Source: Chlamydiales bacterium
GTDB lineage: Bacteria; Chlamydiota; Chlamydiia; Chlamydiales; JAAZZY01
Length of the DNA stretch: 64,000 nt
Direction of reading: 5' to 3'
NCBI GenBank assembly: GCA_965206695.1
Contig: CBDBKM010000011.1
Location: 224,001-288,000 of the forward strand
Shown: positions 12,909 to 13,755 of the stretch, piece after piece
Position numbering within the stretch: position 1 is the first letter of the stretch
How the letters are laid out: each line of letters starts with the position of its first letter
Program-made: the position numbers and the translations under genes
The notes under the pieces: generated by a model
What the model was told of the DNA's origin: nothing
Database searches by the model: none
Seen by the model: the letters and a program-made list of their open reading frames with translations, nothing else

Positions 12909-13047
12909 GACTTAGATAATTACTTGATTAGGCTTAATATCTCATCTAATGCCTTCTTTCAGCCTAACACACGTCAAGCCCGGCTTTTATACTCCGCTGC
13001 TCTAAAACCGCTAGATAAGCCAATTAAAGGCTTTGTTTATGATTTAT

Positions 13048-13317
13048 GATAATCCAGCGGGAAAACCCTTTGCTTTAACATTGGGATGAGAGCGTTTTTC
13101 TCTTGTATTAAACAATTCTTTTTGTTTAAATGCCTTTGTTTTTCAAAATTACCGTAGGGCATACGGAAAGGGTTTCGTAAAAATCCATAGCCTTGGAAAC
13201 TGATACGACTACAAAACGAGAGTAATCCTATTGAAAAATAGGTTAATAGAGGATTAAAGGAACCTCCTAACCGTGAGGGATGGGAATCCATCGGCTTTAG
13301 TCGTTGAAGGAAGTCAA
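13048..13317 (+). mobile_element. IS200/IS605-derived non-autonomous element (family 1, copy 1) with omegaRNA-like scaffold
   Basis: Follows TTTAT, has a left-end hairpin with AAAA at its foot, ends GAAT-hairpin-TCAA, no target duplication. Excision restores GAT TTA T|AC TGT GGG (DLYCG). Confidence 0.92.
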
Positions 13318-13755
13318 ACTGTGGGCTCGGAAGCTTAGGCATGGCGGCTTCTTGTTTTGCCGACACGGTCATTAGAATCGAAATTAATTCTGAAGCACTC
13401 AAACAGGCTCACCACAATGTCGTGATCAACCAGATCAAAAACATTGTGATCATAGAAGGAGTTGTTCATAAGATCTTATCACCATTACAAACAGATCCTC
13501 AATTTATCAACCCTGAGCCGGTTATTTTAGGCCCTCCTCGCGCCGGATTAACGCCTAAAGCTATACAAGATCTTATTCATTTAAGACCGAAAGAGATTCT
13601 TTATATCTCTTGTGAACCTACTTCACAGCAAAGCAATGTCACTCATCTAATGGATAATGGTTATATGCTTACGAAAATACAACCTATCGATCAATTTCCA
13701 CACACTCCTCATATTAAAAATATTATTCTTCTAAAACATCAAACTGTCTCAATTT

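Follow-up and report, generated by a model that had tools for sequence, protein, structure and literature searches.

In the window (that is, the whole 64,000-nucleotide stretch of Chlamydiales DNA analysed here), the remnant of an rlmD/TrmA-like methyltransferase gene, which has an Hc1 histone-like gene and tgt (13756-14865) as neighbours and overlaps the start of the latter, is interrupted by a 270-bp insert that begins directly 3′ of TTTAT (Table 1). The two neighbouring genes fit an environmental chlamydia as host. The reading frame to the left ends with G-F-V-Y-D-L at TTTAT and resumes at 13320 with C-G-L-G-S-L-G, a tyrosine codon being split by the insert, and when the insert is deleted in silico the frame runs through D-L-Y-C-G. 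The right piece of the remnant matches positions 210-356 (of 357) of the Pfam family tRNA_U5-meth_tr. In a tblastn comparison with L081, an intact 446-aa homologue that belongs to the same family, residues 265-297 align with 12903-13007 and residues 312-444 with 13320-13736; the 14 homologue residues between the aligned parts equal the 14 codons across the junction, and the insertion therefore took place without gain or loss of host bases. The claim of an earlier note on this DNA, that removal of the insert restores D-L-Y-C-G of an rlmD remnant, is thus confirmed, the two halves being colinear with the intact gene.

The methylase gene is a remnant in its 5′ part as well: its first ~264 codons are missing, and a ~299-bp repeat (12610-12908) abuts the truncated edge. 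The rlmD-like gene lost its 5′ half either before or after the element inserted. The repeat itself (+ strand) is non-coding, occurs in at least 8 genome copies of 69-91% identity and has sharp ends (…CCAACACGAA); it holds a RAGATH-18-like match below the gathering score (31.3 versus 44.9 bits, E = 0.003), and its CAGGAAAAGAGCG block is reminiscent of the 3′ region found in the second tnpB class of this genome.

Table 1 Features of the insert and its flanks (window coordinates)
Feature	Position	Strand	Basis or remark
Left piece of rlmD/TrmA-like methyltransferase remnant	12909..13047	+	tblastn with L081 residues 265-297
TTTAT target site	13043..13047	+	Host letters, codons of D-L-Y in the methylase remnant; would-be TnpA left cleavage site, predicted TnpB TAM
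Whole non-autonomous element (PATE), no target duplication	13048..13317	+	9 copies, unrelated flanks; no frame open across copies
Left end: AAAA and imperfect palindrome CCCTTTGC-TTTA-ACATTGGG (13066-13085)	13048..13097	+	Common to 71 other left-end copies
Promoter-like TTGTAT-N17-TTAAAT, directed toward the right end	13103..13131	+	Letters; hexamers kept in L120, L128 and L130
Structured RNA module, omegaRNA-type scaffold	13140..13317	+	Models R1 and R2, covariation, homologues
Right end: GAAT, palindrome CCATCGGC-TTTA-GTCGTTGA (13288-13307), AGGAAG, cleavage site TCAA (13314-13317)	13284..13317	+	Compensatory changes; IS608-like 10-nt spacing
Flank, would-be 20-nt guide upon read-through of the right end	13318..13337	+	Position only
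Right piece of rlmD/TrmA-like remnant	13318..13775	+	Overlaps start of tgt; L081 alignment, Pfam

Ends of the insert and its copies in the genome

The insert lacks terminal inverted repeats and has subterminal imperfect palindromes at both ends, as in the IS200/IS605 family, with AAAA (13062-13065) directly 5′ of the left palindrome and GAAT (13284-13287) before the right-end hairpin; the boundaries proposed in the earlier note (TTTAT, a hairpin with AAAA at its foot, GAAT-hairpin-TCAA and a length of 270 bp) hold base for base. GAAT is the right guide of IS608. According to the parts of PMC3201880 available to us, IS608 is cleaved 3′ of TTAC, 19 nt before the foot of the left hairpin, and at TCAA, 10 nt after the foot of the right hairpin, both sites being recognised by the four bases 5′ of the hairpin feet (AAAG on the left). 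The same distances separate 13047 from 13066 (19 nt) and 13307 from 13317 (10 nt) in the insert, and under the pairing rule set out in those parts of the article the tetranucleotides at its hairpin feet fit the cleavage sites, AAAA with TTAT and GAAT with TCAA. As far as that text describes IS608 of Helicobacter pylori, the insert resembles it in lying 3′ of a tetranucleotide without duplication and in carrying four-base guides 5′ of the hairpin feet, and differs from it in its left guide and target (AAAA/TTAT rather than AAAG/TTAC) and in having no tnpA or tnpB. These letters and spacings bear out the proposal of a protein-free IS200/IS605 derivative with guide and cleavage matches of the IS608 type.

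Folded alone as DNA, neither end hairpin of the window copy does better than shuffled sequence (z = 0.37 and -0.58); in the left hairpin, the pair that closes the loop is a C/A mismatch. Among homologues, the letters of the left hairpin change in step, with the syntax retained, in 8 of the 12 that could be parsed, and 6 of the 7 pairs of the right hairpin show compensatory changes; support for the end hairpins therefore comes from in-step covariation among homologues and not from the folding of the window copy itself. No protein-coding gene lies between the two ends of the 270-bp element, as in a PATE: a 121-aa ORF covers the insert on the minus strand, and this frame is closed by 3-9 stops in the 5 other full copies, which indicates that the element is non-coding.

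A BLAST search with 13030-13350 against the genome (2.46 Mb in 13 contigs) returned 81 rows. Of these, 7 were near-full copies (that of the window among them), 2 were copies restricted to the right part, 71 matched no more than the first ~50 bases and 1 was a shorter fragment. The earlier note had made its reading depend on further copies with the same boundaries, and both are found: the element has 9 copies in the genome, with unrelated flanks; in an alignment that includes these flanks, TTAT precedes all 7 copies with a left end (6 TTTAT, 1 GTTAT), and 8 of the 9 end at GAAGTCAA, the ninth being truncated. The element shares its left end with 71 other elements in the genome, and genome-wide TTAT stands before 72 and TTTAT before 54 of the 78 left ends. 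Judged from these repeated boundaries, the insert is mobile DNA. Its copies are 84-90% alike, whereas the right ends of the full-length resident elements hardly differ from one another, and the family therefore looks old. We had considered a stronger conservation of the RNA part (described below) among the genome's own copies and dropped it, as the difference in mean pairwise identity among the 6 full copies is small (89.0% for the RNA part, 84.2% for the rest). Separately, three minimal units of ~50 bp (C2:35815, C8:46176 and C10:430159) consist of the left-end hairpin fused directly to the right-end tail GGGAGCTGTCAA.

Potential helpers abound in the same genome, in which the TnpB TNB domain has 68 matches (with 19 open frames of 376-395 aa), OrfB_IS605 has 55 and the Y1 transposase has 66, 19 of the last covering profile positions 2-121 without a stop. 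The full-length Y1 matches adjoin the same kind of left end, and no Y1 TnpA lies inside the insert. A full resident element reads TTTAT, a left end of AAAA and hairpin, tnpA leftward, tnpB rightward and GGAAT-hairpin-AGCTG-TCAA, and left ends of the insert type also precede tnpA/tnpB elements. In IS605, tnpA and tnpB are divergent; they are divergent in the resident full-length relatives of the insert as well. Such an element (for example, C11:337644-339310) is like the insert in its TTTAT target, its left-end syntax and its GAAT-hairpin-TCAA right end, and has the first RNA stem and an AGCCTT(T)GGA block in common with it. It differs in its hairpin letters and in the RNA region, which is 113 nt long, overlaps the tnpB stop, lacks hairpin P2 and the long-range helix and reaches only 16-20 bits with our model R2; at the resident 383-aa TnpB, the RNA region is shorter (113 nt) and only distantly alignable. 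These resident TnpA and TnpB genes could act on the element in trans.

Several further derivatives lie nearby or elsewhere in the genome. In the window, 56053-56324 (-) and 56330-57554 (+) are two IS605-type elements placed head to head with a common palindromic ATAAA/TTTAT. The former is another gene-less derivative, of the subfamily with the …GGGAGCTGTCAA right end; the latter is a decayed full element, with tnpA at 56395-56748 (-) and a tnpB that starts at 56808 and is cut at ~57555 by an IS630-like insertion (DDE_3-type ORFs, 57565-58460). A further left-end copy follows TTTAT at ~15392 (+) (C11:239392), belongs to a subfamily continuing …tctcgattaaagtgttgtttcg and adjoins an IS630-family transposase gene (15740-16762, minus strand). 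At C10:550235-550742, the right end of a resident tnpB (…GCTGTCAA) runs directly, at …TTGT|ATTAAAC, into the interior of a PATE copy, which suggests that a resident IS605 element inserted at a TTnT site (after TTGT) within that copy, the upstream half having been lost to an IS630-like insertion. We had considered C10:550235-550450 as an RNA module at a true tnpB 3′ end, and abandoned this because a complete right end belonging to that tnpB (…GCTGTCAA) precedes the module.

A covarying RNA module and its relation to tnpB

The right 178 bases (13140-13317) are the best-kept part of the element. They are matched by models R1 and R2 and comprise a closing helix H1, stem P1 (13152-13166), hairpin P2, a long-range helix around a variable hairpin, the GGATTAAAGGAA block and the right-end hairpin. 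The 8 copies of this genome vary too little for a test of the fold (1 of 50 pairs compensatory). In an alignment of 15 sequences from 5 genomes or MAGs (A2), RNAalifold gave 39 pairs, 13 of them with compensatory changes; paired cells made up 94.0%, against 37.7-50.7% with the partners slid, compensatory cells numbered 46, against 16.5 +/- 3.4 in shuffles (0 of 500 reached 46), and the covariation score was 0.307, against 0.170 in the control. Internal helices 4 and 5, one being the long-range helix and the other the enclosed variable hairpin, have 3 pairs each that changed on both sides. TnpA is not known to read these two parts, and their two-sided changes therefore argue for an RNA; the frequent G-U pairs on the + strand of the module fit transcription of that strand. 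In the window copy, 5 nt of the variable hairpin are deleted, and a hairpin nevertheless forms at this place. On the evidence of these substitutions, the right 178 nt are a conserved, covarying structured RNA ending at the right end of the element, and a fold in this part, as the earlier note required, is borne out by the covariation.

The module is not confined to this genome. A DNA search of 200 genomes of the order placed it in 4 other genomes, the match in G081 being one of 22 nt only. In G004, G069 and the MAG record L073, the full layout (TTAT, left end, AT-rich region with a -10-like box, RNA and GAAT-hairpin-AGGAAG-TCAA) recurs with different hairpin letters, and in G049 the same RNA core lies between different ends. 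From one chlamydial family to another the core stays ~80% identical, in contrast to the diverging left end and spacer. Beyond these genomes, a 19-mer of the core led to 37 metagenome loci, of which 33 match R2 at E ≤5e-10, and a 16-mer to 25 loci on viral contigs, of which 6 match R2; a distant blastn of the RNA module against a plasmid collection gave no match. One copy (L155, an IMG/VR contig) lies immediately downstream of a phage capsid gene, and RNA cassettes thus also occur on contigs classed as viral. In the metagenome locus L134 (332-1624), an IscB-like ORF (RRXRR and HNH) precedes a gene-less RNA cassette by ~200 nt, in the same orientation; the two are probably neighbouring elements. 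In a Cyanobacteriota MAG record (L074), the 22-mer of the first RNA stem recurs exactly within a stretch without genes; GAGAAT-hairpin-GAGTGTCAA closes this stretch ~200 nt later, and the R2 match did not reach E 0.01.

The question then is whether the RNA is of the omegaRNA kind. Stem taccgtagggcatacgg, which starts at 13151, had been likened in the earlier note to stems that overlap tnpB 3′ ends; in the alignments, the RNA and the tnpB-end matches have in common the first stem, the right hairpin and, between them, the AGCCTT(T)GGA block. Of the 8 weak R2 matches in this genome (16-20 bits, with E from 0.06 to 0.6), 7 stand immediately 3′ of a TNB-domain match; being copies of a single element, they count as one observation. 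In G069, weak R2 matches (23-24 bits) directly follow tnpB ends and overlap the last codons, and at L107 (62.5 bits) the RNA starts ~20 nt after the stop of a TNB-domain ORF (E 1.8e-21). We had also entertained the first stem, which reads T-V-G-H-T-G, as a coding relic of the TnpB C terminus; this was dropped, since in L107 the stem follows the tnpB stop.

L107 is the single locus among 39 homologous ones with a TNB-domain ORF just upstream of the RNA. At the other 38, neither tblastn with two resident TnpBs nor Pfam (scans of 51 same-strand ORFs of at least 50 aa ending within 500 nt upstream of the RNA) found an upstream TnpB. The upstream sequence was at least 600 nt long in 29 of the 39 loci, and a TNB-domain ORF preceded the RNA in 0 of these 29; these loci are a biased sample, as they were sought with exact words taken from copies that lack genes. 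In this genome, no tnpB is followed by the long form of the RNA: the narrow model R1 found only the 9 copies, its next match having an E of 2.66, and nhmmer with a 16-sequence profile likewise found only these 9. The cognate nuclease of the element may be gone from the genome. Rfam has no match in 13043-13337 at E up to 10, and as it is silent also on a true tnpB right end (L041) and on 4 homologues, this miss says little. Taken together, anatomy and homology support the omegaRNA reading of the right part.

In every copy and homologue, the RNA models stop at TCAA; as this is the cleavage site, a transcript that read through it would acquire the flank. The guide quoted in the earlier note equals the 20 bases directly after TCAA, and from its position we infer that this flank (13318-13337) would act as a guide; the 12-nt seed of this 20-nt guide occurs once in the genome, and the 12-nt seeds of 8 flanks have no further TTTAT-preceded site there that would make a second target. 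Upstream of the RNA, TTGTAT (13103-13108) and TTAAAT (13126-13131) are separated by a 17-nt spacer. Of the promoter-like motif announced in the earlier note, the letters are present and the position is kept in homologues; a generic sigma-70 consensus scan did not report it. The same hexamers with the same spacing recur in three homologous loci (L120, L128 and L130), and TATAAT or TAAAAT boxes stand 3-12 nt before the conserved RNA start in many others. This conserved position suggests a promoter within the element, as a pointer and not as proof.

Comparison with known elements and rival readings

Protein-free PATEs that encode omegaRNAs have already been described, and the insert is a well-preserved further example in a chlamydia; the novelty that the earlier note attached to a gene-less omegaRNA cassette was therefore set too high. 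In the text available to us, Meers et al. (PMC10055086) report gene-less PATE-like elements in Geobacillus stearothermophilus, state that PATEs "often encode" omegaRNAs, which are necessarily used in trans by the TnpB of other elements, and give TTTAT as the TAM of the ISGst2 TnpB2; a PATE with IStron ends is shown in the accessible part of Zedaveinyte et al. (bioRxiv 10.1101/2023.11.20.567912). As far as these elements of G. stearothermophilus are described there, the insert is like them in having no protein gene, in having ends that match resident autonomous elements and in containing an RNA of omegaRNA type and in its presumed need of a TnpA and a TnpB supplied by other elements, and its TTTAT is that of ISGst2 as target and TAM. 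It differs in its host (an environmental chlamydia), in its right cleavage motif (TCAA, not TTCAC), in a long form of the RNA that is attached to no tnpB in its own genome and in a recognisable promoter position of its own. The core RNA motifs had no match in one supplementary text file of PMC10055086, nor did a full-text search find a related paper.

We therefore favour, and consider probable, the reading of the element as a gene-less IS605 derivative (that is, a PATE) made of two ends, a promoter-like region and an RNA gene before the right end, and dependent on TnpA and TnpB from elsewhere. The element entered the rlmD-like gene as one unit 3′ of TTTAT, and its ends follow the syntax that Y1 TnpA transposases read (AAAA-TTAT, GAAT-TCAA, 19 nt and 10 nt). 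The RNA would be transcribed from the internal promoter through TCAA into the flank, and a TnpB from another element would load it, with the flank as guide and TTTAT as TAM. After excision by TnpA, the TnpB complex would then cut the empty site, and recombination with the sister chromosome would return the element, as in the homing model of Meers et al.

The main competitor is that the element is a true IS605 deletion derivative that is now dead, immobile and with its RNA unmade or unused, what conservation there is reflecting descent and the needs of the ends only. That the copies differ by 10-16%, that the RNA part is little better kept than the rest (89.0% versus 84.2%), that the left hairpin of the window copy carries a mismatch and that no cognate tnpB was found in the genome all lean this way. 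The sample's DNA contigs over 12700-13700 also bridge both junctions and contain no excised joint, but contigs drop rare variants and this absence therefore says nothing about excision. Against it speak the compensatory changes in internal helices that TnpA is not known to need, an RNA core that remains ~80% identical between chlamydial families whose left ends and spacers have diverged, the survival of a hairpin through the 5-nt deletion of the window copy and the promoter-like boxes that hold their position in distant homologues, and on balance we regard a dead relic as unlikely.

Still less probable, in our estimation, is a use of the RNA or of an outward promoter that is independent of TnpB (for example, transcription of the methylase remnant and tgt, or a regulatory RNA). 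The setting is suggestive of it here, as the 5′ half of the methylase and any promoter are gone, the other repeat ends at 12908 and no terminator-like site was found on the + strand between 13317 and 13500, with tgt starting at 13756. It would also suit the 38 of 39 loci at which no tnpB ORF precedes the RNA, and G004, which retains a copy and yielded no Y1 gene and, of TnpB, no more than a 35-aa fragment. Yet the other copies lie in unrelated contexts, as selfish insertion predicts, and the RNA always ends exactly at the right end of the transposon, which is the omegaRNA layout. That the insert is no transposon at all, and instead a chance repeat or a REP-like host element with hairpins, could draw on the unremarkable thermodynamics of the end hairpins in the window copy; against exact boundaries repeated in 9 copies, TTAT before 72 of 78 left ends, the same left end before tnpA/tnpB elements and a gene that becomes colinear again once the insert is removed, we give it almost no credence.

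Implications of a putative guide-RNA family found mostly without nuclease genes

Returning to the gene-less IS605 derivative, we may tentatively go one step further, to a proposal that we hold to be possible and rather doubtful. The RNA could mark a widespread lineage of promoter-bearing guide-RNA cassettes that are almost wholly without a nuclease gene: RNA-only hyperparasites that would depend on autonomous IS605 elements both for mobility (through TnpA) and for retention (through TnpB), that would be under selection for the RNA and its promoter, that would be able to outlast the nucleases in reduced genomes and whose outward promoter might on occasion be co-opted (here for tgt). The basis of this proposal is the occurrence of the RNA in several chlamydial families, at 33 metagenome loci and on 6 viral contigs, with a link to tnpB in 1 of 39 loci.

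For the locus itself, the element accounts for a further break in a methylase gene that is truncated anyway, and it may be a source from which tgt is transcribed. For the IS605 family, it offers a natural example of modularity, in which ends, guide RNA, transposase and nuclease can sit in separate elements. The RNA family described here, with its covariation-backed structure, its absence from Rfam and its occurrence mostly without tnpB, could be used to find the TnpB clade that serves such cassettes, could test whether homing retains elements that consist of a guide RNA only and may aid the annotation of similar repeats in chlamydial and other genomes. What remains most notable is an RNA family that is found almost only without a nuclease gene, across distant hosts.
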